From positions 1 through 64,000 of the IMG/VR virus record IMGVR_UViG_3300035698_031273: a DNA stretch of 64,000 nucleotides; one strand, 5' to 3'. Shown one piece after another: positions 1,817 through 20,435 of this stretch. This stretch comes from a virus. How positions within the stretch are numbered: position 1 is the stretch's first letter; each line of letters opens with the position of its first letter. The position numbers and the translations under genes are program-made. The notes below the pieces were generated by a model. That model saw only the letters and a program-made list of their open reading frames with translations, was not told where the DNA came from and did not search any database.

Positions 1817-2065
1817 ATGACTTGGTATAAAAAATGTAAAAAAGTAAATAAAATACCTGGTGGCAAAGCAGATGGTATGGATTTAAATGGATTTGACCAA
1901 GTAGAGCTTGAGAAGGGAAAAAATGTGGAATTTGAGCATTCCAATGACCCCGAGATAGCTCAAGAAATTTCATCTGATCATTTAGAAGAGCACCCAGAGT
2001 ATTATATTGGTCTAAAACATATGGAAGATTTGCTAACAGAACTAGAGAAAAAAAGAAAAAAATGA
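1817..2065 (+). CDS. WY-leader cassette 1: DUF5661-like small protein
   Basis: Starts MTWYKK; G..VEFEH....IA..I..DHLEE.P.YY pattern. Confidence 0.65.
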   Translation: MTWYKKCKKVNKIPGGKADGMDLNGFDQVELEKGKNVEFEHSNDPEIAQEISSDHLEEHPEYYIGLKHMEDLLTELEKKRKK

Positions 2066-4479
2066 GTTGGTATAACTTTATTAAATTAGCTGATTATGAG
2101 CAATTTCGTTCTAAAGTAGAACAGGAATCTAGGCAAAATCCCTATCCCTTCAAAGATTGGTTCGACGAACAAGGTAGAGTTTATATTCCTTTTTCTTCTC
2201 TTTCTACAGAAGAAAATCAACAGAGTGATACAGATGTAGAGCAACTATTAACTGAAAATGGTTGTCAAATAACTGATTATAGGGGTGGTTATTGTCAATC
2301 TGGAAACAGAACTTATAAAATTGGAAAATTTTTAGAGCAAATAAGAAAAAGACAATTACAAGTGCTTAGGGAACAACACCAAAAAGGGGAAATTTACAAC
2401 TTAGAAAGAGCATTAGAAGAAACAAATAAATATTTTAATGATGTTATAAATACTTTTACAAATTCTTCCCTAAGGGCTCAAAAAGGTTCAGAGGGATTTT
2501 TTATTGTCATTTCCCAAAATCCTCATGATGTTGCTCAGATGTCAACTGACAGAGACTGGACATCTTGTATGGAATTGGGGAGTGGGTCATATCATAAAGA
2601 TATTTATTGTGAAGTTAGAGAAGGTGGTTTAGTTGCTTACCTTATTAATAAAAATGACTTAAATATAGAAAACCCATTGGCCAGAATACACATAAGAAGA
2701 TTTTCAAATAAAGATGGTCAATCTGTGGCTATTCCAGAAGAATCGGTTTACGGAAACGAAGTAACTGGTTTTTCTCAAGGTGTTAAAGAATGGTTAAATA
2801 ATAAACAGGGAAATGTTCAACCAGGAGTATATTCAAGACAGGGAGGGGGATATTCTGATACATTCTCTGATAGGACATTTTTTGGGCCTGAAGATCCAAA
2901 AGAAGTTATGAAATGGCTTAAAGGAGAAGTTGAAGGTTCTGTTTATTCTGAATGGGAAGTAGAGGATGCATTAAATTCTCAATATACAGAATTTGTTGAA
3001 GCTGCTTACATGGATGAAGATGGGAATATTCATACTGATACTGATGAAATCGGTGATTATGAAAAAATATTTAAAAACAAGGAAGAGGCAGAATTATATT
3101 TGGAGAAAATGAAACAAGAAGATAAAAAACACGGTATTTATGATAGAGAAATTTTTGATAATATGAAAAATGAAGAAGAGGGTTTTGAATATGATATCGA
3201 GTGGACCGAAAAAGATGAGGAAGGAAATTGGGCACTTCCAAGATTTAGTATTTCTGAAATAAACCATGATAATAGGAGTGCATTAAAAAAAGAAGCAGTA
3301 AAGATTATTTTAAATGCAGAAAAAGGAGTATATCCTGAAGAAATATTAGAAGAAGTAAAAAAATATATTTTCTTTAAATCTCCTCATCCTACAGTTAATT
3401 TTGATATCAAGAAACAATTTTATATTAAATATCCTAATTTAATGACAGAAGAAGATATTCAATCATTGAGTACTTCTCAAAATATAGAATTCGTAAAAAA
3501 TTTGCCAGAAGAAGAACAAGTACCATATAAAGAAGCGTGGTTAGATAAAATAAACGGTATTATTGATAATCCAGAAAATTTAATTGATGATGAAACTCAA
3601 AGAATGATACGAAAAAGAGATCTGAATACAGACATAGGAGAGAGAGCAGAAATAGATTCACATATATTGACTAGAATAGAACTTCGTGTTAATGATGAAA
3701 TTGCTTCACCTCTTGAGATATTTAAGCCTATTCCAGAACCTTTAATTAGAAAATTAGTAAATTTTGCAAATAATATTAATTCTTTTCTTGGAAAATTTAT
3801 TAATTTAAAGGAAGAAAATTTTTATGATGAAGTTGGTGGATTTGATAAGAGTCTTTATCATAAAAAGAAAGAAGTTGATAATATTAACTTTAAGAAAATT
3901 TCTTTTAATGAAAGAATACACGCTAAAGTAGTATTTTCTTTAAATATGTCTGGTAGCGATACTCCTACTGTACAAAGATATTATGCAAGTTTGCTACCTT
4001 TATGGAAAGAAGATTATACTGGTAGTAATTATAGCAATGTTAATATAAATACTTTAGGGTCTGCTATTGCAAATTTAGGAGAGAATGGAAGACAATTTAT
4101 TCCTTTTATTAAACAAAAAATACAAGAAACACAAGAATACAGAAAATTAAAAGAAGAATCTATAGAAAGTAAGGAAAATTATGTACAAAAACAAGAATTA
4201 CAAAGAATTGATAAGTTAATAGAAAGATATTTATACATATTAGATGCTGTAGAAAGTGGTACAGGCAGATCAAGTAAATATAGATTTTCTAAAAATAGAA
4301 AGTTTTATAAAATGGCAAATAACTGGTATGGCAGAACAAAAGATAAATTAGAAAATATGTTAGGTTTGGGAAAATATGAGCCTAAGCCTAAAAAGAAGAA
4401 GAAAAAGGAAGAAAAGGGAGATTGTGATTGTGCTCATTCTTTGGACATGCATTGTGATGGTGGAGATGACGGATGGTGA
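2062..4479 (+). CDS. WY-leader cassette 2: large hypothetical protein with MSTDRDWTSCM domain
   Basis: Starts MSWYNFIKLA; ATGA overlap with upstream stop; in-frame internal MANNWYG at 4312. Confidence 0.6.
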   Translation: MSWYNFIKLADYEQFRSKVEQESRQNPYPFKDWFDEQGRVYIPFSSLSTEENQQSDTDVEQLLTENGCQITDYRGGYCQSGNRTYKIGKFLEQIRKRQLQVLREQHQKGEIYNLERALEETNKYFNDVINTFTNSSLRAQKGSEGFFIVISQNPHDVAQMSTDRDWTSCMELGSGSYHKDIYCEVREGGLVAYLINKNDLNIENPLARIHIRRFSNKDGQSVAIPEESVYGNEVTGFSQGVKEWLNNKQGNVQPGVYSRQGGGYSDTFSDRTFFGPEDPKEVMKWLKGEVEGSVYSEWEVEDALNSQYTEFVEAAYMDEDGNIHTDTDEIGDYEKIFKNKEEAELYLEKMKQEDKKHGIYDREIFDNMKNEEEGFEYDIEWTEKDEEGNWALPRFSISEINHDNRSALKKEAVKIILNAEKGVYPEEILEEVKKYIFFKSPHPTVNFDIKKQFYIKYPNLMTEEDIQSLSTSQNIEFVKNLPEEEQVPYKEAWLDKINGIIDNPENLIDDETQRMIRKRDLNTDIGERAEIDSHILTRIELRVNDEIASPLEIFKPIPEPLIRKLVNFANNINSFLGKFINLKEENFYDEVGGFDKSLYHKKKEVDNINFKKISFNERIHAKVVFSLNMSGSDTPTVQRYYASLLPLWKEDYTGSNYSNVNINTLGSAIANLGENGRQFIPFIKQKIQETQEYRKLKEESIESKENYVQKQELQRIDKLIERYLYILDAVESGTGRSSKYRFSKNRKFYKMANNWYGRTKDKLENMLGLGKYEPKPKKKKKKEEKGDCDCAHSLDMHCDGGDDGW

Positions 4480-4928
4480 ATTGGTATAAGCAAACACAGC
4501 AACAATATTTATGGGAAGATGATACGGAACTTCCTTTTGCTAATGTTAAGTCTACTAAAGAATACTGGGACAAGAAATATCCTAAAGCTGGTAACAATGT
4601 TAGTGGATTAAATGTTGTAGGAAGTGTTGATAATACAGGCTCTATTAGTGCTGCAATGGAAAATTATTATATATATTATGATATTCGTGAAATTCCAATG
4701 TCTGATTTTGGAGAAGGTGGTTCTTACTCAGTTGATAATAATGAGAGAAATAGAAAATTAGCAGAAGAAATAAAAATGTCAGGTGAAATTTCTCCTCTAA
4801 TTGTAGTCATAGACGAGGAAGGTACTTATATTTTAGAAGGAGCACATAGATTTGATGCTTTATATTTATTGGGAGTACAATCTTTTCCTGCTTTATTGGT
4901 TTTAGATCAGGATGAAAGTGAAAAATGA
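4473..4928 (+). CDS. WY-leader cassette 3: ParB/Sulfiredoxin-like domain protein
   Basis: Starts MVNWYKQTQ; ISPLIVVIDEEGTYILEGAHRFDAL matches the ParB-N GxHR motif. Confidence 0.75.
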   Translation: MVNWYKQTQQQYLWEDDTELPFANVKSTKEYWDKKYPKAGNNVSGLNVVGSVDNTGSISAAMENYYIYYDIREIPMSDFGEGGSYSVDNNERNRKLAEEIKMSGEISPLIVVIDEEGTYILEGAHRFDALYLLGVQSFPALLVLDQDESEK

Positions 4929-6685
4929 ACTGGTATAAAATAGCACAACAAGGTTTACTTTTTAATCCTTATGACAAATATAGGGATGAGGAAGAGGGAG
5001 CAGAAAAAATATCTCCATCTTATGTAGACCCCAATACAGGAGAAAAATTTTACGAATGTACAAATTGCGGAAAATCTTTTCCTGAAGAAGAATTAGAGTG
5101 GGATGTTTCAAGAAGCGATAAAAATGAATATTCCTTTTCTCTCATAGAGAAACCTTTGAGAGAATTTTTTACAGAAGTATGGAATTATCTACAACCACTT
5201 TATATTAAATACCAAAAAGAAAAAGGCAATGAAAATTCTTCTTGTGAATCTTGGACATCTCCTACTGAAGAATTACCTAATATTGTTAAAAAACATGAAT
5301 TTCAATTTGATCAATTATTATCATATTCTAAGTATTCTTATGATTATAGTTTGTTAACTTTAATTAATATATTAAAAGAAACATCAATTATAAATGGTTG
5401 TGAACTAGAAGAGATTAATAAAATCTTTTCTAATATGGATCAATTAATAAATACAATATTTACAAATCCTACTAATATTTTTATTCCTATTCTTGAACCT
5501 TATTGTAAAGAATGTATAGAAGATTTTCCCAATTGTAACCTTTGTTGGAAAAAGATATTGCCAGAAGAAAGGAAGTGGCAAGATGTAGATAAAGGTTTTA
5601 TTTGTGCAAAATGTATAGAAAATGGAGAAGGTAGTGTATGTATTGAATGTGGTCAGGCAGATGATACAGATAATATGGTATATACTAATGACGGTACTCT
5701 TTGTAAAAATTGTTCTTCTTCACCATATCAAAATCAGATGTATTCAGAATGGGCTGAAGAAGCTATTTCTGATTTAGATATTCCCGTAGGAAAATACGAA
5801 CCTGTTGTTAAAAAAACCTTAACAAGTCTTAGACAATTTCTTTTAACATATTATAAAAGATATGGAGATGTTTCTTTAGAGCAAAATGAACTATCAAAAT
5901 TAATTCATTTTGCTGAAAAAGCTCGTTTATCCGATCAATCTATGGAATATTTAAAATCTTCTGTTGGAGGTCATATTTCTATTGGTTTTTTAATTGACCA
6001 TATAGATAATAATTTAGGAGCACAAGAATATATGGAAGATTTGTATCCTGGTATAAAAAAATATGAGGATATACCTTTTGATATTAATGTGGTTCCTAAT
6101 GATGTAAAAAAAGTCATGGGTTTTACTATTACAATTACTCCTTCTGACAAATTCTTTTCTTGGGCAAAAAATATACATCCTAATATTGAAGAAGTATGGA
6201 GTAGTATGAGATACACTCCTCATCATGAAGGAACCTTAGCCTATGCACGTTGTAGTTTTAATGGAGATATTTTAGTTGTAAATAATTTACAAAGAGATGC
6301 TGATTTTGATAATTTTCTTAATCAATCTATGTCTGATAATTCTAAAAATGTTGAAGTTGCTAAATGGATGGATAAGGTAACTAAAAATTGGGATATATTT
6401 TTATTACATATTGTAAAATCAATTTGTATAGCAAAAAGTATTGATGGCTATTTAACAACATTTGATCAACAATCTGAAAAGTGGGAAAGTTTACCAATTC
6501 ATAAAAGTCGTCGTTCTTATGAAGATGTTCCTCGAAAAATGGATTTTCCTTTAGAGGTACCTAGTCCAACTGCACTTGTAGAAGATGACATTAAAGGAGA
6601 TATGTATCGGGTTGCTCATGAAAACTGGTATAGAAGAGCACAAAGACATAAATTCGGAAATAATTTTGACTACAAGGTATTTTAA
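4925..6685 (+). CDS. WY-leader cassette 4: multi-Zn-ribbon protein
   Basis: Starts MNWYKIAQQ; six CxxC pairs (CTNC, CKEC, CNLC, CAKC, CIEC, CKNC); C-terminal HH..LAYAR...LVVNNLQRD region; internal NWYRRAQ at 6623. Confidence 0.65.
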   Translation: MNWYKIAQQGLLFNPYDKYRDEEEGAEKISPSYVDPNTGEKFYECTNCGKSFPEEELEWDVSRSDKNEYSFSLIEKPLREFFTEVWNYLQPLYIKYQKEKGNENSSCESWTSPTEELPNIVKKHEFQFDQLLSYSKYSYDYSLLTLINILKETSIINGCELEEINKIFSNMDQLINTIFTNPTNIFIPILEPYCKECIEDFPNCNLCWKKILPEERKWQDVDKGFICAKCIENGEGSVCIECGQADDTDNMVYTNDGTLCKNCSSSPYQNQMYSEWAEEAISDLDIPVGKYEPVVKKTLTSLRQFLLTYYKRYGDVSLEQNELSKLIHFAEKARLSDQSMEYLKSSVGGHISIGFLIDHIDNNLGAQEYMEDLYPGIKKYEDIPFDINVVPNDVKKVMGFTITITPSDKFFSWAKNIHPNIEEVWSSMRYTPHHEGTLAYARCSFNGDILVVNNLQRDADFDNFLNQSMSDNSKNVEVAKWMDKVTKNWDIFLLHIVKSICIAKSIDGYLTTFDQQSEKWESLPIHKSRRSYEDVPRKMDFPLEVPSPTALVEDDIKGDMYRVAHENWYRRAQRHKFGNNFDYKVF

Positions 6686-7176
6686 TGAGTTGGTATAAAA
6701 TAGCACAAAATTATATTCCTGAATGGGATTTTCCAGAGGCAGAGGATTCTCATGATTATAATCCATCATGGGATTATGAAATAGATGTTCTTCCAGATGA
6801 AAAAATTGTAGCAATTGCTGAAAAAGTAATGAATGAAATAAATACAAAAATGTTACCTGAAATTGGTATGGGGAAAGCTAAAATATCTTATATTAAAGAT
6901 GAAGAGAATGCATTGGCTAGATATATTTCTGGAACAGCCCCTTATCCTGTTTTTGTTATTGATATTAATAATATAAAAAAAGCAGTAGAGGAATGTATTA
7001 AAGATAATTTTTGTGATTTAGAACATGAGCTTTCAATTGGGATTAGTACAACACTTTTTCATGAGTTGGGACATGCGATTCAAGATTGGATGAATTTAGA
7101 GTCTAATGAGGATGAAGCAGAAGAATTTGCCAGACATTATAGTGATTTTGGAGAGATCTCAAATTTTTGGGAATAA
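6685..7176 (+). CDS. WY-leader cassette 5: zincin-like metallopeptidase
   Basis: Starts MSWYKIAQ; TLFHELGHA (HExxH) plus downstream E..AEEFA. Confidence 0.8.
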   Translation: MSWYKIAQNYIPEWDFPEAEDSHDYNPSWDYEIDVLPDEKIVAIAEKVMNEINTKMLPEIGMGKAKISYIKDEENALARYISGTAPYPVFVIDINNIKKAVEECIKDNFCDLEHELSIGISTTLFHELGHAIQDWMNLESNEDEAEEFARHYSDFGEISNFWE

Positions 7177-7178
7177 AA

Positions 7179-7661
7179 ATGAGTTGGTATAAAAAAATTA
7201 AAATATCAGCAACCAAACAAGAATTAGAGTCTATAGGAGTAGAAATTGTAAATGGAGATGCTATTCTTTATAGAGGGACAGATATTAAAGATCTTACTAT
7301 CAATAATTTAAGATACGGAGATTTTTTATCTTCTGTTCCATCTGGCACTGATTTAACAGGAAATGCTGGAGCAGATTCATATGGTAAATACATAGAGAAA
7401 TATATAGTCCCTATTGATCATATTGAGATTTCTAATGGAGAACTTCAATACAAAGGTCCTTCAAAAAGTTTATCAGGTGGAAGTAAATACCCAGAAGAAA
7501 TATATAGAGCTTATAATGATTATTATGGAAGTAATTATACTTCTCAGCAAATAGATCAAGAAGATTATAAAATAGTAAAGATGGTAGCATCAATGGCTCT
7601 TGGTGGTGGTCGTGACGAATTTGATATTTTATTAAGAAATCATAAAAATGAATTGGTATAA
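7179..7661 (+). CDS. WY-leader cassette 6: ADP-ribosyltransferase-like protein
   Basis: Start reassigned to ATG 7179 (MSWYKKIKISA); LYRG...LRYGDFLSS...A.SYG pattern of small phage ART-fold domains; ends NELV. Confidence 0.5.
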   Translation: MSWYKKIKISATKQELESIGVEIVNGDAILYRGTDIKDLTINNLRYGDFLSSVPSGTDLTGNAGADSYGKYIEKYIVPIDHIEISNGELQYKGPSKSLSGGSKYPEEIYRAYNDYYGSNYTSQQIDQEDYKIVKMVASMALGGGRDEFDILLRNHKNELV

Positions 7662-8517
7662 AATTAGTCAAATAGAAAATTGGTCTTCTCAAGATATTTT
7701 AAGGCATATTGAAAAACTTTATAAACAATGGGATCCTTTATACTCTAAAGTTGAATCTAACCAAGTAATGCTGCCAGAAGAGATAGAAAGAGAAGAAGAT
7801 TTAAGAAATCAACAAAGGTTATATGGACGTTTATATAATGAAGAAATAGAAAAAGAAAAAGAACAAACATCTGCTAAAATATTAGAAGGAAAACCCCATG
7901 AGGTTCCACAAGAGAATTTTTTAAATTATCATAAAACAGGTGATATTGTAGACTCGGCTTACAATGATTATAAAACAATAGAAGGTTTATCGTGGCTGGG
8001 AAAACCTTCTGATTATCCTATTTTATTAATGCAAAAAAAATATGGTGATGAAATTATTGAATTTAGAAAGAAAAAAGAAAAATTAAAATATGTAAGAACT
8101 AATAATGAAGAGATAGTTAGAGATGAGAAAGGTTTAGCAACATATCTTTCTGATGAGGAAATTAAAGAACGGGGATATCCTTTATATTCTACCGATATTA
8201 CAGTTTTTAATGAAAAAGGACAACCAATAGGTTCAGCTTCTGACGAATTTGGAACAGATGGAATTTGGGTAATAGAACAATATCAAGGAAAAGGTATAGG
8301 AACTGATTTACTTCATGAATTTAGAAAACAATTTTCTCATAAAAGAAAAATGGGACAAATGACTACTTCTGGTAGGAATACCACAAGAGCATATCATAGA
8401 AGATTAGTACAAGAAGCCATTAAAAATAATCAATTTGTTCCAAAAAATGTTCTAGAGACATATAAAGGAGAAGAGTGGGCAAATAAGGTTTTAGAGGATA
8501 AAAATGAATTGGTATAA
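7648..8517 (+). CDS. WY-leader cassette 7: GNAT acetyltransferase domain protein
   Basis: Starts MNWYKISQ; IWVIEQYQGKGIGTDLL is the acetyl-CoA-binding motif A (QGKGIG); ends NELV. Confidence 0.8.
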   Translation: MNWYKISQIENWSSQDILRHIEKLYKQWDPLYSKVESNQVMLPEEIEREEDLRNQQRLYGRLYNEEIEKEKEQTSAKILEGKPHEVPQENFLNYHKTGDIVDSAYNDYKTIEGLSWLGKPSDYPILLMQKKYGDEIIEFRKKKEKLKYVRTNNEEIVRDEKGLATYLSDEEIKERGYPLYSTDITVFNEKGQPIGSASDEFGTDGIWVIEQYQGKGIGTDLLHEFRKQFSHKRKMGQMTTSGRNTTRAYHRRLVQEAIKNNQFVPKNVLETYKGEEWANKVLEDKNELV

Positions 8518-9316
8518 AAAATCATATAATACTCAAGTTGGTATGTTAAACAGATATCTGAGAGAAGGATTTAATATTTATGATTATATTCCTTACTTGA
8601 TGGATTTTTTAGAAGAAAAGCATCCGGAAGTAATTGATAATTTATACAAAGCACAAGAAATGAATAAAAATAACTTATTCAACAAAAAAGATTTATATTA
8701 TGATGATGAAGATTATATAATGGAAAAATGGGTAGATTATGCCACTCCAGAACAAATAAAAGAATTTAAAGAATGGATAGAGAATAAAAAATTAGATTCT
8801 TCTAGACGGGATGCTCCTCCTTATGAGGCAATGGATTATAATAAATTTATTAAACCAACATGGTTAGTACATTTTACTGATAGTCCAGATGATATATCTG
8901 AAGAGGGTTTTGCTAAAGGATGGGAAGAAATGGAAGGCTTATCATATACTACTTTCTATAGAAATCCTAAGTCTCCAGGTTATAATTTTTCTTTTCATGC
9001 AGATAATTATAGAGATATTAGAGCAGCAGCTCGAGGTAAAAAATATGGTGAACATGCGGTTTTATTTTGGGGTAGTGGTGTAGAAGCCACTCATTATGGA
9101 GATGAAGAAGATCAAGTGATTGTCTGGGGTCCATCTATAAATACTAATTTAATAATTCCTATTATGAGACAAAGTGATACTGGTAATTGGGCTATAATGA
9201 ATAATAGATATAAATATGATGAACAACCAATGTATGAAAGTGAAAATATTACAGATGTTATTGATTGGGGAATAAATAATAGTGATTTAGTTAGAAGGGT
9301 AATGCATAAATTTTGA
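8504..9316 (+). CDS. WY-leader cassette 8: ADP-ribosyltransferase-like protein
   Basis: Starts MNWYKKSY; WLVHFTD...I.EEGF...GYNFSF...KYG...DEEDQV pattern consistent with an ART fold. Confidence 0.45.
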   Translation: MNWYKKSYNTQVGMLNRYLREGFNIYDYIPYLMDFLEEKHPEVIDNLYKAQEMNKNNLFNKKDLYYDDEDYIMEKWVDYATPEQIKEFKEWIENKKLDSSRRDAPPYEAMDYNKFIKPTWLVHFTDSPDDISEEGFAKGWEEMEGLSYTTFYRNPKSPGYNFSFHADNYRDIRAAARGKKYGEHAVLFWGSGVEATHYGDEEDQVIVWGPSINTNLIIPIMRQSDTGNWAIMNNRYKYDEQPMYESENITDVIDWGINNSDLVRRVMHKF

Positions 9317-9786
9317 ATTGGTATAAATTATCTAAAAAATTAGAACCTTGGGAAATGACAAGAAAAGAATATGATTCTATGCCATATCCTCCTTTAAAAC
9401 CCAATAAGATATTTTATGTTAATGTTTACGGAAGAAATGTTGAATTTATTCAAAATCCAACAAGTTCAGATATAAGACAAATGAGTAAAGAAGTTATATC
9501 TGACTATCCTATGTATCCTTTGGGTACCCCTAAATTAAGATCAACACAAGATGAGAATGGTAATAAATATTATTGGAAAGCTTCTGAATCTGTGCATGCT
9601 CATATAGAGCCTTTAATAAGTAAAATAATTAATACTGAATTAAATCAAAATGCAGCAAGACCTTATTATTATACAGTTATATATGATGCTTTAAAAGAAA
9701 AAAAACCAGTTCCCAACAATATATTTAACGAGTTTGCACAACAATATCCAGATGCAGCTAGGAAATTTAATTATGAATTGGTATAA
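9313..9786 (+). CDS. WY-leader cassette 9: hypothetical protein
   Basis: TTG start (TTGAATTGGTATAAA) overlapping upstream TGA; EPWEMT..EY and ALKEKKPVP motifs; ends YELV. Confidence 0.65.
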   Translation: MNWYKLSKKLEPWEMTRKEYDSMPYPPLKPNKIFYVNVYGRNVEFIQNPTSSDIRQMSKEVISDYPMYPLGTPKLRSTQDENGNKYYWKASESVHAHIEPLISKIINTELNQNAARPYYYTVIYDALKEKKPVPNNIFNEFAQQYPDAARKFNYELV

Positions 9787-10540
9787 AACAGCACAACAAA
9801 TATTAAATGTTAATCCATATCTTTCTAAAGAAGAAAAATCTTCTATAAGAGAGATAAATAAAAATATAAAAGAACAACAATTTGCTTTAGAACTTTATCA
9901 AAATAGCATTTTGGAAAAACAAAATAAAGCAAAACAAGAAAACAGACCTTTAAATGAAGATGAAGAAACATATATAAAAGGAGCAGAATTTTTTATAGAT
10001 AAAATAAATACTAGTATTCAAAGGTTGCAAGAAAATGTAGAATTTATAAAAGACAAGGTAAAAGAAGAACTTTCTCAGGAAGTTAGTGGGGGTAGGAAAA
10101 CAACAAGTTTAATAAATGAAGCTGTTAAAGAATTTAAAATAACTACAGACATAAATGAAGCTGGATATATTATGCCAAATGGAAAAATGTTAGATTTTTC
10201 CGGAAAAAGAGAAAAAGCATTAGGAGGAACTAGATCACTTGATCATAGATCAATTGCTAGAATAAAAGGAATAGAAGGATCTTATACTGATGGGATGAAT
10301 GAATTTATAAATAAAACAGGAGCAATTAGAGTAAATTCTAGTGTAGGATTAGGTATAGATGTAGCTAAACCAATCACTCCTCAACAAAAAGCAACAATAT
10401 TAAGAAATATTAGAGGAAAAGAATATTTTTTAATAGAGGTTAATGATAATGGAGGAATTGCTATCTGGCAAAAAGAAATACAAATGCCTTTGGTATTTAG
10501 TGCTGCTAAATTAATTGAGGAAGCAAATACTCAATTTTAA
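9773..10540 (+). CDS. WY-leader cassette 10: coiled coil plus GYIMPNGKMLDFSG...DHR domain
   Basis: Start reassigned to ATG 9773 (MNWYKTAQQ); motif of a kind I associate with phage polyvalent proteins. Confidence 0.6.
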   Translation: MNWYKTAQQILNVNPYLSKEEKSSIREINKNIKEQQFALELYQNSILEKQNKAKQENRPLNEDEETYIKGAEFFIDKINTSIQRLQENVEFIKDKVKEELSQEVSGGRKTTSLINEAVKEFKITTDINEAGYIMPNGKMLDFSGKREKALGGTRSLDHRSIARIKGIEGSYTDGMNEFINKTGAIRVNSSVGLGIDVAKPITPQQKATILRNIRGKEYFLIEVNDNGGIAIWQKEIQMPLVFSAAKLIEEANTQF

Positions 10541-10613
10541 ATAATATAGTTTTTAAAGAATAAAATCAATGGATACTAAAATGTATCAGCACCTTAACAA
10601 AGGAGAGTAAAAA

Positions 10614-10739
10614 ATGGGTTTAATAAGCGGATTAATAATTGGATTTGTTATTGGAGTTGTTTTTGCCCCAATAGCACTTAGATTGTTTAAAGTTCTTTGG
10701 AGTAAAATATCAAAGAATGTAGATAGTTTAGAAAAATGA
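10614..10739 (+). CDS. Small single-TM membrane protein (41 aa, not in ORF track)
   Basis: AAGGAGAG RBS; MGLISGLIIGFVIGVVFAPIALRLFKVLWSKISKNVDSLEK; its stop overlaps the next ATG (ATGA). Confidence 0.7.
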   Translation: MGLISGLIIGFVIGVVFAPIALRLFKVLWSKISKNVDSLEK

Positions 10740-11008
10740 ATTGGTATAAAAGACATATATATGCAGGTCGTCCTAAAAGATTACCGTCTGTTACTCTTCG
10801 AGATTTAATGAAAATATTAAATAAAGAAGAATGTCAGTTTGTGAGAAAAACGCCTAGAGGACATAATATTTGGAGATGTCCTAATAATAATAATCATAAT
10901 TTCCCTATCCCAAATCATCGAGGAGATATAACGGATGTTATAACACCTATTATTCAAAAAGGACTGGGAATGACTGTAGATGAGTTTGTAAATAAATATT
11001 ACAGGTAA
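10736..11008 (+). CDS. hicA: WY-leader cassette 11: HicA-like mRNA interferase
   Basis: Starts MNWYKRH; LPSVTLRDLMKIL...FVRKTPRGHNIWR...IPNHRGDI...IIQKGLGMTVDEF is the HicA pattern; no hicB nearby. Confidence 0.75.
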   Translation: MNWYKRHIYAGRPKRLPSVTLRDLMKILNKEECQFVRKTPRGHNIWRCPNNNNHNFPIPNHRGDITDVITPIIQKGLGMTVDEFVNKYYR

Positions 11009-11084
11009 AACTAATATATCTGGTGTCAACTCATAATGAATATTTTTGAATTTATAAATAAATTTAATAGATAAGGAGGTAAAT

Positions 11085-11318
11085 ATGAAAATTGGTTTTT
11101 TTGAGAATGAACCAGGAGAAAAAAGTATAACTAGATTAGTTTTTGCTTTTTTAATTTTGAATGCTACTCTCATGTCTTGGTTTTTATTAATATCAAATCC
11201 TGTACTATGGCAAGCGGCTGCTACTATGTTTGGTACTGTATCTGGTGTTGCTACCGGGCTTAAGTTGATTCAGAAATCACAAGAGGTTAACGAAAAAAAC
11301 GGCAAAAAAGTAACATGA
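11085..11318 (+). CDS. Small two-TM membrane protein (possibly holin-like)
   Basis: AAGGAGG RBS; two hydrophobic helices after KSITRL; basic C-terminal tail. Confidence 0.55.
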   Translation: MKIGFFENEPGEKSITRLVFAFLILNATLMSWFLLISNPVLWQAAATMFGTVSGVATGLKLIQKSQEVNEKNGKKVT

Positions 11319-12280
11319 CATGGTATGGAAATTTAAAACTCGCCTCCGTAGAATATATGTATCATGGGACAGGTATGCAAAATCTTTCTTCTATTCTTTC
11401 AGAAGGATTAGTGCCGGGTAGATCTCTTATTTACGATGAGCCATTAGACTATTCTTCTATTAGAAGTTATGGAGGAATTTATCTTACTAATAACATAATG
11501 ACAGCTTATTCTTCTGGCACAAAAAATATTGAGAAAACGAAATCAGAAGAAAACAAAAGAGTTATTATAGTTGTTAAAATAGAAACAAAAACACCTCATG
11601 TAATTATAGATGAAGATTTATTTATGTCTCCAGGTTATTCTATTCAGAAAAAATTACCAGTAAATCTAAATGTATCAAATAGTTATGATTATTTAGCTTA
11701 TTTTGTGACCACAGAAATGAATTCTAAAATTGATGAACTTGTTGATAGTTACATAGAGAGTTTAGAATTTGTAAATAAAATACAGGATAATAGAATTTTA
11801 ACTAATTTGAGACCTCTTATTGCTGAATTGATACAGGCATATTTATGGAGACAATTGGCATATCAAATGGACAATTATTTCTTAGATGCCCATGACTATC
11901 AAAAAGAAGAATTTTTTACTAAATATCCACAGTTAAGAAATATTAATGTAGAGGAATGGGAAGTAAAATATAGATCAATAGCAGATAATATTATGAGAAA
12001 AGTGCATAGATTAAAAGAAATTATAGAAGAAAGATATTCTTATAATTTGAGATCACTAGAACCAATTTCATTTAGAGGAAAAAATAAAATTGTTTTAATA
12101 TCTGTTTTGAAACAAAATGATATTGAAAATGAGTATTATTTTGAATCTGATATTTTATATATGGGTGATGAGCAGGCTGCTCAAAAAATGATAGATGACT
12201 TGACTGGTCGTTTAAGTACTTATGCAAAAATAACCTATAGAGATAATGTGTTATATGAAAACGAAAAAGAATTGGTATAA
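11315..12280 (+). CDS. WY-leader cassette 12: ADP-ribosyltransferase-like protein
   Basis: Starts MTWYGNLKLAS; MYHGT...ILSEGL...GIYLTNN...AYS; ends KELV. Confidence 0.65.
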   Translation: MTWYGNLKLASVEYMYHGTGMQNLSSILSEGLVPGRSLIYDEPLDYSSIRSYGGIYLTNNIMTAYSSGTKNIEKTKSEENKRVIIVVKIETKTPHVIIDEDLFMSPGYSIQKKLPVNLNVSNSYDYLAYFVTTEMNSKIDELVDSYIESLEFVNKIQDNRILTNLRPLIAELIQAYLWRQLAYQMDNYFLDAHDYQKEEFFTKYPQLRNINVEEWEVKYRSIADNIMRKVHRLKEIIEERYSYNLRSLEPISFRGKNKIVLISVLKQNDIENEYYFESDILYMGDEQAAQKMIDDLTGRLSTYAKITYRDNVLYENEKELV

Positions 12281-12638
12281 ATTAGCACAATCTGAAAATC
12301 AATATTTATATCATGGAACCTCTGAAGGTGCTTTTAGAAAAATACGAGAAGAAGGATTAGTTACTAATGGTGGTTTTATATATTTATCTGAAGATATTCA
12401 ATATGCTAAAACATATTCTGAAAGAAAAGGAAATAATATTGCTGGATCAAGAATTTTAAGAATTTTAAAAACCCCAGATATGTTACGAGATGAAAGGATA
12501 AGTATTCCAGGAGATTATATTACAAATAGAAATATTTCTCCTCAAGAAATAGAAGTTTTAGTAGAAAATAAATGGATTCCTATACAAGAATATAGTAACC
12601 CAGATATTAATATAATGCCATATTTTAATAAAAGTTAG
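12255..12638 (+). CDS. WY-leader cassette 13: ADP-ribosyltransferase-like protein
   Basis: MKTKKNWYKLAQ; LYHGTS...IREEGL...IYLSED..YA..Y...ISPQEIEV. Confidence 0.7.
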   Translation: MKTKKNWYKLAQSENQYLYHGTSEGAFRKIREEGLVTNGGFIYLSEDIQYAKTYSERKGNNIAGSRILRILKTPDMLRDERISIPGDYITNRNISPQEIEVLVENKWIPIQEYSNPDINIMPYFNKS

Positions 12639-12645
12639 ACAAATT

Positions 12646-12957
12646 ATGAATTGGTATAAATTATCTTCACAAATACAATTGTTCAGAGGAGAGATGGAGT
12701 CTGGACAAGGAAATAATTATTATTCTCCAGATAAGGAGTTTGCAAGACAATTCACTCAAAGTGGTCAAGATAAAGAAATTAAAACAATAATTATGGATAA
12801 ATCTGATATTTATAGAAAAAATCCTTTACCGAGATCTTACGGTTTTGACGATAAAGAACTTGATAATGCAATAGCAGAGGCCAAGGAGAATGGATTTAAA
12901 GCACTTTGGATTGATGAGGGAGAAGGACAGCCCAATTCAGTTTTTCTAATAAAATGA
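12646..12957 (+). CDS. WY-leader cassette 14: small ADP-ribosyltransferase-like protein
   Basis: Starts MNWYKLSSQ; LFRGE...YYSPDKEFARQF...GFKAL. Confidence 0.55.
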   Translation: MNWYKLSSQIQLFRGEMESGQGNNYYSPDKEFARQFTQSGQDKEIKTIIMDKSDIYRKNPLPRSYGFDDKELDNAIAEAKENGFKALWIDEGEGQPNSVFLIK

Positions 12958-13112
12958 ACTGGTATAAAATAGCACAACAAGGATATCTCTGGGATAATGA
13001 CCCATCTCTTCCCCATGCCAATACTTCATGGGAACCTTCTGGTGATATATTTGAGGATATTAAAGAATGCTCTACAATGGGGGAACTTAATAGGGTTTTT
13101 AGCAGTTATTGA
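12954..13112 (+). pseudogene. WY-leader cassette 15, 5' fragment (52 aa) truncated at the tnpB element
   Basis: MNWYKIAQQGYLWDNDPSLPHANTSWEPSGDIFEDIKECSTMGELNRVFSSY*; stop falls at the IS left boundary. Confidence 0.7.
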
Positions 13113-14413
13113 TAAACTTACAAAATTATACAAAAACTTCAATAAATTTATAAAAATAATTTAAATTTTTATTAAAGGAGTTTTAGGATATACCCAGTAA
13201 TTATAATATATGATTAAGACAGAAAGACATTTTACCACAGGAAACCAAGAAATTATAAATCTTTGTTCTTTAAGTAAAGATTTATATAATCGGTGTCTTT
13301 ATCTAATTAGGCAAGAATATTTTAAACATAAGAGACTACCTGATATAAATATTCTTGTAGATTCAACTAGATGTTTAGATTGTTTTAAAAATCTTCATAA
13401 TACGAAGACTGCCAAACAAACAATCAGAAAAGTATTGTCTGACTGGTCTAATTTTAGGAAAGCATTAAATGCTTTTTACAAAAATCCTAATAAATTTTTA
13501 TCAAAACCCAGACCTCCAAAATACAAAAAGAAATTATCTCAAGTTATATTTTATAGTGAAACTATTAGCAGAAAGGGCTTAAAACATGACATAATTCAAC
13601 CTACAAACAATTGTTTTTCAATTAAATCCAGTATTAAAAAATTTAGACAGGTAGTCATTACTCCAAAAACCTTTGGTTTTGTCATAGATGTACAGTATAA
13701 AGTAGAAGAAAAGAAAAATCCTAGTAGAAAAGGAATTTGTTTTATAGATTTAGGTGTTAATAATTTGGCTTCTATAACTTCAGATCAACTAACTCCCATA
13801 TTGATCAATGGTAGAATAGTTAAAAGTATTAACCAATATTATAACAAATATCCAACTAAAAAGAACTCAAGAAAAAGGTATTTTAGACTAGAAAATTATT
13901 TTCATCACGTAAGTAAATATATTATTGACTTATGTAAAAACAATAATATAGGAAGAATAATTATAGGAAAGAATGATTATTGGAAACAAAAGATAAAAAT
14001 GAAAAAGAAGAACAAACAGAATTTTCAGTATATTCCTTTTTATAAATTGATACAAAAAATTCAGTATAAAGCTAAATTAGAGGGAATTATAGTAGAGTTT
14101 ACTGAAGAAAGTTATACAAGTAAAAGTAGTTTTCTAGACAGAGATCCTTTAGATGGAAGTACTATTTCTGGTAAAAGAGTTCAAAGAGGATTATATAAAA
14201 GTAAAGATGGAAAAATTTTAAATGCAGATGTAAATGGAAGCTTAAACATAGGGAGAAAAGTAATCGGAGAGAAGATTTATGATCTTTTATCTGATAGGAG
14301 CGTTACCGCAACGCCAGTGGTCATTAACCCATTGAAATTATCATCTTCAAAGTTATTTTGTCAAAAGATGGTCGGTTAATGATACAAACTTGTAAGTTTT
14401 TGTAAATTTATAA
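13113..14413 (+). mobile_element. Non-autonomous IS200/IS605/IS607-superfamily element carrying tnpB only (ends approximate)
   Basis: tnpB without tnpA; imperfect inverted end repeats (TTACAAAATTATACAAAAACTTCAA vs reverse complement TTATAAATTTACAAAAACTTACAA); interrupts a coding frame. Confidence 0.7.
13210..14379 (+). CDS. tnpB: RNA-guided endonuclease TnpB
   Basis: SKDLYN N-terminus, P.PPKYKK, RuvC-I IDLGVNN, IIIGKN, EESYTSK, GKRVQRGLY, RuvC-III NADVNGSLNI. Confidence 0.93.
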   Translation: MIKTERHFTTGNQEIINLCSLSKDLYNRCLYLIRQEYFKHKRLPDINILVDSTRCLDCFKNLHNTKTAKQTIRKVLSDWSNFRKALNAFYKNPNKFLSKPRPPKYKKKLSQVIFYSETISRKGLKHDIIQPTNNCFSIKSSIKKFRQVVITPKTFGFVIDVQYKVEEKKNPSRKGICFIDLGVNNLASITSDQLTPILINGRIVKSINQYYNKYPTKKNSRKRYFRLENYFHHVSKYIIDLCKNNNIGRIIIGKNDYWKQKIKMKKKNKQNFQYIPFYKLIQKIQYKAKLEGIIVEFTEESYTSKSSFLDRDPLDGSTISGKRVQRGLYKSKDGKILNADVNGSLNIGRKVIGEKIYDLLSDRSVTATPVVINPLKLSSSKLFCQKMVG

Positions 14414-14791: not shown

Positions 14792-15673
14792 ATGAGAAAA
14801 CTAATGGCAAGTTTACTAGTATTGTGTTTACTATTTTTTGGAGGAGCGGCTTTTGCTGAAGAAGAGGGGTCTACTGTAGTCCCTGTTGCTCCTAGTGTTA
14901 CAGAGTTAGAACCGTTGATAGATGGTAATTTATTTGGAACAGATTTGAGTGAAGCAACTTGGAAAGAGGCAGATGTAACTATTGAAACTAGTTATGCAAG
15001 TAAATATAAATGGTATGGTAGAAGTCTTTTTGGTTCAACTCCGGTTTGGTCAGCTCGTTCAGTAATTGGTTTACCCAAAGGATTAACTCCATTTGGTGGT
15101 GGTCTTTATGCTGATATTACTGGTTATTTTCCTGCTGGATCAGGTGCTGAGAAAGAGACAGAGATGGATTATTCTTTGTTTTGGCATGCAACTGCAAATG
15201 AGGGCAAGAGAACTCAATTGGAAATTTTTGTAGATTATACCTATTATGATCTTATAAAATCTAATAGGCATTGTGACGGGCAAGAGATTGGAACTACTGT
15301 TTTCATGCCTAATGTAATTGACATTGCAGATGGTGTTATATTGATTGGTCCTAAATATAGAAGTGCTATTTTATGGGATCAAAATCGGGAAGAGATGGAA
15401 CGGTATAATGGGAACGTTCAGGTAGGTGGTCTTGTTTGTCAAATAAATGCAATAGATGGACTTCCTTTAATTGCTAATGCTGATGTTACTTATCTCGATG
15501 TTGGTGATGTAGAGGCTGGTTTTAGTCATAGCACATTTGGCTTAGAGACAAAAATTCAGATTACAAAAGATAGTTATATTAGTCCTTTTGTAAATTATCA
15601 GATGAGAATAGATGATACATTAGAAGATGAAGATGGATTTTGGGGTGGTGTAACCATGGCATATACTTTCTAA
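14792..15673 (+). CDS. Outer-membrane beta-barrel protein (TorF-like putative porin)
   Basis: AAGGAGAG RBS; Sec signal peptide ending AFA; YASKYKWYG; alternating strands; C-terminal MAYTF BAM-type signal. Confidence 0.7.
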   Translation: MRKLMASLLVLCLLFFGGAAFAEEEGSTVVPVAPSVTELEPLIDGNLFGTDLSEATWKEADVTIETSYASKYKWYGRSLFGSTPVWSARSVIGLPKGLTPFGGGLYADITGYFPAGSGAEKETEMDYSLFWHATANEGKRTQLEIFVDYTYYDLIKSNRHCDGQEIGTTVFMPNVIDIADGVILIGPKYRSAILWDQNREEMERYNGNVQVGGLVCQINAIDGLPLIANADVTYLDVGDVEAGFSHSTFGLETKIQITKDSYISPFVNYQMRIDDTLEDEDGFWGGVTMAYTF

Positions 15674-15827: not shown

Positions 15828-16034
15828 ATGGCTAAAATTCGTATTCCGTTAGTTTCTGGAGGAAGAGGTAGAGGAATGGGTCCATGTGGTGGAGGACAGG
15901 GGCCAGGTGGAGGAAGAGGACAGGGGACAGGTGGAGGAAGAGGTTTAAATAGAAATACTGGTCCTTGTCAAAATGGTGGGCCTGGACGTGGTTTAGGACA
16001 AGGTCAGGGCAAAGGACTAGGGAGAGTTAAATAA
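15828..16034 (+). CDS. Gly/Arg-rich small basic protein (DUF5320-like)
   Basis: AAAGGAGA RBS; GRGRGMGPCGGG and G-R-G repeats. Confidence 0.6.
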   Translation: MAKIRIPLVSGGRGRGMGPCGGGQGPGGGRGQGTGGGRGLNRNTGPCQNGGPGRGLGQGQGKGLGRVK

Positions 16035-19376: not shown

Positions 19377-20435
19377 ATGAGTTGGTATAAAAAATCACAA
19401 TTTACAGAGGAAAATACGAGTGGAGTACAAGTTCCTACGATAACTGTCCAACCATATGAGCCTATTGTACAACAAGTAGTAGAAGAAATTAAGGAACAAA
19501 ATCCTTCTTTTTTCGTAGGGATAAATCAAATAGTTGTTGATCCTGGTTATTCCCAATTTGGATCTGTATCTAGTTCTAATCCTGCGGATATAAATATTAA
19601 TTTTAATAAAATAAAAGATGATTTTAGATATCAAATGGGTGTATCTTTCAATCCTTATAATGCTTATCATTTACAATTATTTAAAGATAGTATCAGGCGT
19701 ATCATAGTTCATGAAAAAGCACATGTATCGGACGCTCAACAGGCACAAGAAGGTTCTGAAATTCCTTTATCAGGAGAAGAATTATTTCCTGGAGGAGAAA
19801 GCGTGGCACAACAAGCAGAACAAAAATATTTCAACATGAGTAAGAAAATAGAAAAAAAATCTGTATCAAAGAAAAAATCCACACTAAAGAAAAAAATTAC
19901 ATTGAAGAAAAAACCCACACTTGATTATAAAAATCAAGATGTTCAAAATTTAAGTTTTGGAGACATACAGAGGTATACATTTGACTCATATAATATTAAA
20001 ATAACTTTAAGTAAAACTAAAAAACGTTATGCTGTAGCTTTAGTTGTTACCCATGCATATCTTGGGACTTTCGTTCTGAATATTTTTTGGTCATTTGGTT
20101 TGAACGAACAAGATAAAGCTAACAGTTTATTTAAGAAAGCTACAAAGATAATAAAAGAAGTAGTAAAGTATTTTATTGACAATGAGATGGTAACTTCTAC
20201 ATTCGTATCTTTTTTAAATAATAGATTAACTCCACTAAAGACACGAGAAATGATAAAAACTAATGTGCCTTTTATAAATTATTCTTATGATTTGGAGGTG
20301 GAACAGGATTGGAGAAGTAGTATTTATGGTAATAGGTATCAACAGGTTGTTGAACCAGAAGAAAGTTTTTCACAAGCAAAGGAAAAAAGTCCATATGATC
20401 CCAAGAATTATAATAAAGGAAGGTTTGATATATAA
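19377..20435 (+). CDS. Dispersed WY-leader protein: zincin-like domain, Lys-rich linker and second domain
   Basis: Starts MSWYKKSQ; IIVHEKAH (HExxH) and downstream GESVA. Confidence 0.65.
   Translation: MSWYKKSQFTEENTSGVQVPTITVQPYEPIVQQVVEEIKEQNPSFFVGINQIVVDPGYSQFGSVSSSNPADININFNKIKDDFRYQMGVSFNPYNAYHLQLFKDSIRRIIVHEKAHVSDAQQAQEGSEIPLSGEELFPGGESVAQQAEQKYFNMSKKIEKKSVSKKKSTLKKKITLKKKPTLDYKNQDVQNLSFGDIQRYTFDSYNIKITLSKTKKRYAVALVVTHAYLGTFVLNIFWSFGLNEQDKANSLFKKATKIIKEVVKYFIDNEMVTSTFVSFLNNRLTPLKTREMIKTNVPFINYSYDLEVEQDWRSSIYGNRYQQVVEPEESFSQAKEKSPYDPKNYNKGRFDI

Follow-up and report, generated by a model that had tools for sequence, protein, structure and literature searches.

The question raised by this locus is why neighboring genes with unrelated products share the same DNA at their starts, and why that DNA also holds the stop codon of the preceding gene. 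The locus lies in the stretch that we analyzed, positions 1–64,000 of the IMG/VR virus record IMGVR_UViG_3300035698_031273 (hereafter the window), and consists of a tandem array of genes, here termed cassettes, that open with the same few codons, here termed the tag. The full record is 107,069 bases long, comes from a genome of 30% GC and has a completeness of ∼22% as judged by CheckV, so it represents only part of a much larger phage genome. The sequence is present in salt-lake metagenomes. The original prediction held that the tag DNA is a purpose-built nucleotide-level junction, carrying a stop for any neighbor, translational coupling and a tag for each incoming gene. Our analysis indicates instead that the tag is probably a peptide-coding cassette start in which the stops arise automatically and which acts as a landmark for cassette exchange.

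The motif ATGAATTGGTATAA, with up to 2 mismatches allowed, occurs 18 times in the window, compared with 2.6 ± 1.6 times in shuffled sequences. On the plus strand there are fifteen copies in the interval 1817–12967 and a further one at 19377, and a peptide scan detected a variant start, ATGACATGGTATGG, at 11315. When the whole record was scanned in six frames, 16 gene products were found to begin M-[N/S/T]-W-Y-[K/N/G], and the remaining 87 kb held no more tagged genes. The consensus over codons 1–8 is M-N-W-[Y/F]-K-K-[A/S]-[Q/K]. Fifteen tagged genes, c1 to c15, together with two untagged genes for small membrane proteins, make up the plus-strand array at 1817–13112, which contains no terminator-like site. 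The c16 tag (19377–19390, also plus strand) lies outside it.

Behind the tags, the cassette bodies in the window bear no relation to one another, apart from weak matches between c12 and c13 and between c3 and c15, and they hit different families (DUF5661, ParB-like, GNAT, and HicA-like). Homologues of c1, the DUF5661 cassette, retain MNWYK or MNWFK at 58–62% identity. DUF5661 proteins in other phage lineages lack the tag and begin directly with their own first residues. On these comparisons the tag is a separable add-on. Related loci were collected with a profile of c1 homologues (103 loci) and by an exact-motif scan (13 loci), giving 116, and carry L numbers below. Many of them hold arrays of 3–10 tagged genes. 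Single-protein queries of viral contigs with c4 and c7 found no relatives.

The stop codons in the tag can be read off its spelling. Methionine and tryptophan each have a single codon, in more than 80% of cases the remaining three residues of M-N-W-Y-K are encoded by AAT, TAT, and AAA, and in this AT-rich genome the peptide is nearly always spelled ATGAAYTGGTATAAA. A spelling of the ATGAATTGGTATAA type necessarily carries TGA in frame +1 and GAA-TTG-GTA-TAA (Glu-Leu-Val-stop) in frame +2. An upstream gene in frame +1 of the tag thus ends in a 4-nt overlap, one in frame +2 ends in a 14-nt overlap with the forced tail [N/H/Y/D]-E-L-V, and one in frame 0 meets no stop in the motif and reads through into a fusion. 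The residue before ELV is encoded by x-A-T, where x is the base at −1, giving Asn, His, Tyr, or Asp. A GTG start places Gly before ELV, and the AAG at 12267 places Lys there. Stops in both alternative frames had been claimed for the motif, which is correct in general but not for the variant ATGACATGGTATGG at 11315, which has no frame +2 stop.

The 14 junctions within the array comprise seven of the type xTGA, four 14-nt ELV-stop overlaps, one TAATG, and two short spacers. ATGA overlaps are found at the tags of c2 (2062–2075, with the TGA of c1 at 2063–2065), c4 (4925–4938, ending c3), the HicA-like c11 (10736–10749, ending an untagged 41-residue membrane-protein gene at 10614–10739), c12 (tag variant MTWYG at 11315–11328, ending an untagged 77-residue membrane-protein gene at 11085–11318), and c15 (12954–12967, ending c14), the last being a 52-residue truncated paralogue of c3. 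The c9 tag (9313–9326) has a TTG start and ends c8 by a TTGA overlap, and the c3 tag (4476–4489) has a GTG start and ends c2 by a GTGA overlap. The c5 tag (6685–6698) forms the TAATG overlap with c4, whose TAA is at 6683–6685. Spacers of 2 nt and 7 nt separate the c6 tag (7179–7192) from the stop of c5 and the c14 tag (12646–12659) from that of c13. The first tag, that of c1 (MTWYK, 1817–1830), stands 12 nt past the stop of a papain-like protease gene. The ATGA, TTGA, and TAATG junctions listed by the original prediction were all recovered on reading; the GTGA at 4476 had been missed.

The 14-nt overlaps lie at the tags of c7 (7648–7661), c8 (8504–8517), c10 (9773–9786), and c13 (12267–12280). 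There, c6, c7, c9, and c12 stop at 7661, 8517, 9786, and 12280 and terminate in NELV, NELV, YELV, and KELV, respectively, exactly as had been noticed. Such ELV ends are otherwise absent from the record, being found at only these 4 of its 275 open frames of at least 60 codons. The c13 tag was expected to begin a gene. It does terminate c12, but its first codon is AAG in place of ATG; from the in-frame ATG codons at 12246 and 12255, c13 would begin 4 or 7 codons upstream, putting the tag off the exact N terminus. Non-ATG first tag codons are thus GTG, TTG, and AAG in the window, and the c12 homologue in L076 has ATA (L076:7799).

Overlaps of 14, 4, or 1 nt account for 12 of the 14 junctions in the array, compared with ∼20 of 71 (about 28%) elsewhere in the record. 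The window and the 116 loci together provided 97 tag starts that were canonical and non-redundant, and the spacer was −14 in 14 of these (including one spurious frame), −4 in 22, and −1 in 20. The tails seen over these starts were NELV, HELV, YELV, DELV, and GELV, exactly as the base at −1 predicts.

In-frame junctions are rare: there are none among the 14 in the array of the window and 4 among 78 short junctions overall. This rarity arises because overlaps prevail and overlaps cannot be in frame. Upstream genes do run into the stops of the motif, but the claim that it terminates its neighbor holds for out-of-frame genes alone, and in-frame neighbors fuse. Two relics of such fusions lie on the plus strand of the window. 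The last 55 residues of c2 (4312–4479) are an in-frame relic cassette with the degenerate tag M-A-N-N-W-Y-G, homologous to a small Cys/His-rich cassette that is free-standing at L070:2954–3166. The end of c4 (6620–6685) holds an in-frame, truncated relic tag, E-N-W-Y-R-R-A-Q..., and the same fusion is intact in L077, where the Cys/His-rich cassette (7415–7648) is fused in frame behind the c4 homologue and its ATG tag lies inside a 663-residue open reading frame (ORF). The small Cys/His-rich cassette terminates in ...HCDGGDDGW, and its L070 and L077 copies have a second internal WY motif.

Comparison with relatives bears on whether the tag marks the limits of exchangeable units. The original prediction was that breakpoints of gene gain and loss should map to the motif, and this was borne out. 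The nearest relatives of the window, L068 and L069 (82–85% nucleotide identity), have the order protease, c1, two extra cassettes (143 and 594 residues), and c2, and the c2 tag of the window is the breakpoint of this two-cassette difference. Specifically, homology between the window and L068 stops 16 nt past the tag ATG and restarts 6 nt before the ATG, and the 23-nt overlap of the two homology blocks is the motif itself. The clearest case involves L074, L075, and L076. The 5.8 kb over which L075 and L076 align (5,645 + 200 nt) show 100% identity, as do the 2,887 + 200 nt that L074 shares with L076. The sole difference is a 722-nt cassette present in L076, flanked by a 24-nt direct repeat of tag DNA, AATGAACTGGTATAAAAAAATA, of which L074 and L075 have one copy.

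Between L070 and L073 one cassette is replaced by two, with ends at +26 and 0 relative to the tag start, and L005 and L073 have a single cassette in common, at 82% identity, with tags bounding both of its ends. Breakpoints of cassette gain, loss, and replacement thus lie within about 26 nt of a tag ATG. Over all loci, 196 of 728 distinct internal ends of high-scoring segment pairs (HSPs) fell between −10 and +30 of a tag start, compared with 22.6 ± 4.7 for random positions. Starts of homology blocks concentrate at −9 to +1 and their ends at 0 to +27. The order of the cassettes and their neighbors vary among the relatives. A 15–24-nt tag string recurs at every gene boundary and is the site of whole-cassette differences between related phages, and exchange at this string preserves the start and the tag register of each gene.

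The explanation contained in the original prediction, that the 14-nt DNA was selected as a self-contained, plug-and-play junction providing a stop for any neighbor, coupling, and the tag, has several observations in its favor. Overlaps are far commoner in the array than elsewhere in the record, short in-frame spacers and strong Shine-Dalgarno (SD) sites are scarce (4 of 78 and 1 of 15, respectively), the motif coincides with the breakpoints in relatives, and the use of non-ATG codons at tag starts would be in keeping with reinitiation that follows termination. There is no sign, however, that the stops are maintained for their own sake. Information content is near zero upstream of the tag, except for a weak purine preference at −12 to −7 and A/T at −5 to −1; it rises abruptly at +1 and remains high as far as +24, so that conservation begins at the start codon. 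Synonymous sites vary as much as the background or more: 58 tags have AAT and 27 have AAC at codon 2, and TAC, AAG, TTT (Phe), and AGA (Arg) variants are present. An excess of TAT over TAC, as a sign of selection for TAA, was considered and rejected, as tags show none. TAT accounts for 13 of 13 cases in the window tags compared with a fraction of 0.88 in gene bodies (p = 0.18), and for 65 of 71 in tags elsewhere compared with 0.86 (p = 0.12).

Among 115 unique tags, 90% have a stop in frame +1, 85% in frame +2, and 79% in both, and the fraction with both matches the expectation from codon usage. The stops are in the motif because of the tag peptide and the AT-rich codon bias. TAATG-type overlaps (20 of the 97 tag starts) are independent of the tag codons, the difference in SD sites is not significant, and in-frame neighbors are not stopped. 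Selection on the stops themselves was therefore found in none of the synonymous sites, TAT usage, conservation boundary, or both-stop fraction, and the best reading is constraint on the peptide, with dual coding as its by-product. A purpose-built nucleotide-level junction is consequently an unlikely account of the tag.

How the tagged genes are translated has a bearing on a second alternative. A strong match to the anti-SD sequence precedes 1 of the 15 tag starts; the proportion is 28% for the first starts of non-tag genes and 8% for ATGs chosen at random. The direction agrees with the original prediction that most cassettes lack an SD site, but the difference is not significant (p = 0.17), and most genes in the record are also without a strong site. 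The two untagged membrane-protein genes that interrupt the array (10614–10739 and 11085–11318) do have strong SD sites. The regions around tag starts have less structure than the surroundings of random ATGs (−2.2 compared with −3.9 kcal/mol, p = 0.002). A scan for sigma-70 promoters gave hits at shuffle level. The overlaps, the SD deficit, the open starts, and the non-ATG tag codons would suit either termination-reinitiation or initiation without an SD site on an AU-rich start.

The same features could suggest that the start region serves in cis as an operator, in RNA or in DNA, such as a RegA-like repressor site or an enhancer of the downstream-box type, and that the peptide is incidental. 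The motif does cover the region of initiation in genes that share an orientation and are probably transcribed together, its sequence is AU-rich and lacks structure, and strong SD sites are absent from most tagged genes. Nevertheless, the substitutions are conservative at the level of amino acids (Tyr/Phe, Lys/Arg, Asn/Ser/Thr, Ala/Ser) and free at synonymous sites, with no conservation upstream of the AUG. We regard this explanation as very improbable. Still harder to sustain is the idea that the shared starts are remnants of tandem duplication of one ancestral gene, with the overlaps being ordinary phage packing and no cassette behavior: the c3/c15 and c12/c13 pairs are indeed related, and 4-nt and 1-nt overlaps are common in phages (8 of the 71 non-tag junctions in this record are −4 overlaps), but most bodies have no detectable similarity and belong to different families, DUF5661 occurs untagged in other phages, and the same cassettes are found in other orders and beside other neighbors in relatives.

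We thus return to the tag as a peptide-coding cassette start with automatic stops and a role as a landmark for exchange. Several observations weigh against this reading. Gene boundaries naturally end homology blocks even without motif-mediated recombination, and because every boundary in the array is a motif, most of the breakpoint signal cannot separate recombination at the motif from conservation of the gene as a unit. Only one clean event bounded by a direct repeat was seen, that between L074 and L075 on one side and L076 on the other, and many of the HSP ends are non-independent, as they derive from c1, the gene with which the loci were fetched. The tighter packing of the array (12 of 14 junctions compared with about 28%) leaves room for selection on overlap or coupling. 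Finally, tags of unrelated cassettes within a locus are no more alike than tags of different loci (permutation p ∼ 0.3). By the same permutation there is no sign that gene conversion, or frequent exchange within the motif, homogenizes the tags of a locus; the tag travels with its cassette and is not homogenized. The cassette behavior at the motif is nevertheless real and is the interesting part of the locus.

In the mechanism that we propose, the junction is the 5′ end of each cassette gene, encoding a conserved 8-residue N-terminal peptide. Cassettes may be exchanged by short-homology recombination at the tag DNA, and the tight overlaps would allow coupling by termination-reinitiation, or else the unstructured, AU-rich start may support initiation independent of an SD site. 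Searches for RecA, RecT, and Erf gave no match in the record, itself a ∼22% complete fragment. By analogy with the internal proteins of phage T4, the tag peptide would most plausibly be a sorting or capsid-loading address.

The T-even internal proteins are a highly diverse set in which only the capsid targeting sequence (CTS) is conserved (PMC3012670). The array resembles the T4 CTS/internal-protein locus in that a short conserved N-terminal peptide stands at the head of unrelated, diverse, and probably counter-defence neighboring proteins. It differs in being larger (15–16 genes) and in that its tag DNA supplies the stop codon of the neighboring gene, which is not described for T4. For the tagged proteins, packaging into the head and cleavage of the tag by a head protease would be predictions from the analogy. 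To our knowledge, and in an unaligned comparison, the consensus M-N-W-Y-K-K-A/S-Q has no position in common with the T4 CTS beyond the initial Met. The motif K-x-A/S-Q was enriched in no protein of the ∼22% complete fragment (best uncorrected p = 0.007 among 90 ORFs).

A second likeness is to the modular shuffling mediated by promoter early stem-loops (PeSLs) in the hyperplastic regions of T4-type phages (PMC2839356, PMC4122927). In both cases a short repeat at the gene boundaries of a variable region bounds indels and replacements between close relatives. The PeSLs, however, are intergenic promoter-terminator elements, whereas the repeat described here consists of coding codons 1–8, has no promoter or stem-loop signature, and keeps the reading frame and the tag through recombination. 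The locus therefore combines features of the T4 CTS and of the PeSLs and lacks the testable defining feature of each, namely likeness to the CTS and an intergenic promoter-terminator.

Overlapping stop/start junctions of the ATGA and TAATG types, with translational coupling, are known in bacterial and phage operons. The array is similar in that 7 of its 14 junctions (xTGA) and the single TAATG would place terminating ribosomes at or beside the next start. The recurrent 14-nt overlap with its fixed ELV tail is, in contrast, specific to this tag. Polymorphic toxins and MuF-type effectors (PMC3482391) likewise have a constant N-terminal part and variable payload domains exchanged by recombination. 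Theirs is a single large protein, accompanied by spare cassettes and by genes for immunity, whereas the constant part here is only 8 residues long and heads separate, complete genes in tandem. With regard to integron cassettes, the 14-nt motif is not palindromic by eye, and no integrase search was made. It is conceivable, although doubtful, that the tag DNA is a coding counterpart of the integron attC site or of the PeSL, a boundary element kept for three combined functions: it would address proteins, for example to the capsid for injection, couple their translation, and permit in-register swaps within a library of injected effectors.

A full-text literature search for MNWYK returned no relevant paper. 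A five-gene MNWYK array was found at 3072–6650 of L118 (CAZYRX010000043.1), a 19-kb contig binned as uncultured Halanaerobium. This contig gives a weak hint of a host or of a prophage, consistent with the salt-lake metagenomes that hold the window.

Several genes beside the tagged cassettes were recorded. A papain-family (Peptidase_C1) gene at 950–1804 lies directly upstream of the array, and the same arrangement is found in L068, L069, and L084. That this protease is linked to processing of the tag is only a thought. Directly after c15 is a TnpB/IS605 OrfB-type gene (13210–14379), the only mobile-element gene seen, whose insertion may have cut the array. A TnpB of 56% identity adjoins a tagged gene in L010, a 173-kb contig. 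In L076 a GIY-YIG-like endonuclease gene (9252–10004) is inserted between tagged cassettes. Further downstream in the window, the gene at 14792–15673 encodes a protein with a signal peptide and an aromatic last residue, similar in appearance to an outer-membrane barrel, and is followed by a 68-residue Gly/Arg-rich ORF at 15828–16034; neither product matched a family. Two adjacent small genes on the minus strand of L010 (3200–3638), one of them DUF5661-like, both begin MKIIKTAK, possibly a second kind of common N-terminal tag, carried by another large phage.

Annotation is easily misled at this locus by the 14-nt overlaps, by tags that start without ATG, and by the forced ELV tails. Gene-calling programs will place the starts of c6, c10, and c13 wrongly and pass over the fused cassettes. 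For the biology of these phages, the locus suggests that a putative protein address tag can double as a recombination landmark, by which probable host-takeover or counter-defence enzymes are reshuffled with their starts and frames intact. Two ideas that have stood apart in T4, a CTS carried by internal proteins and the shuffling of hyperplastic regions through motifs, are thereby connected. Should the tag prove to be a loading signal, it would provide a handle for finding or engineering the cargo of uncultivated huge phages.

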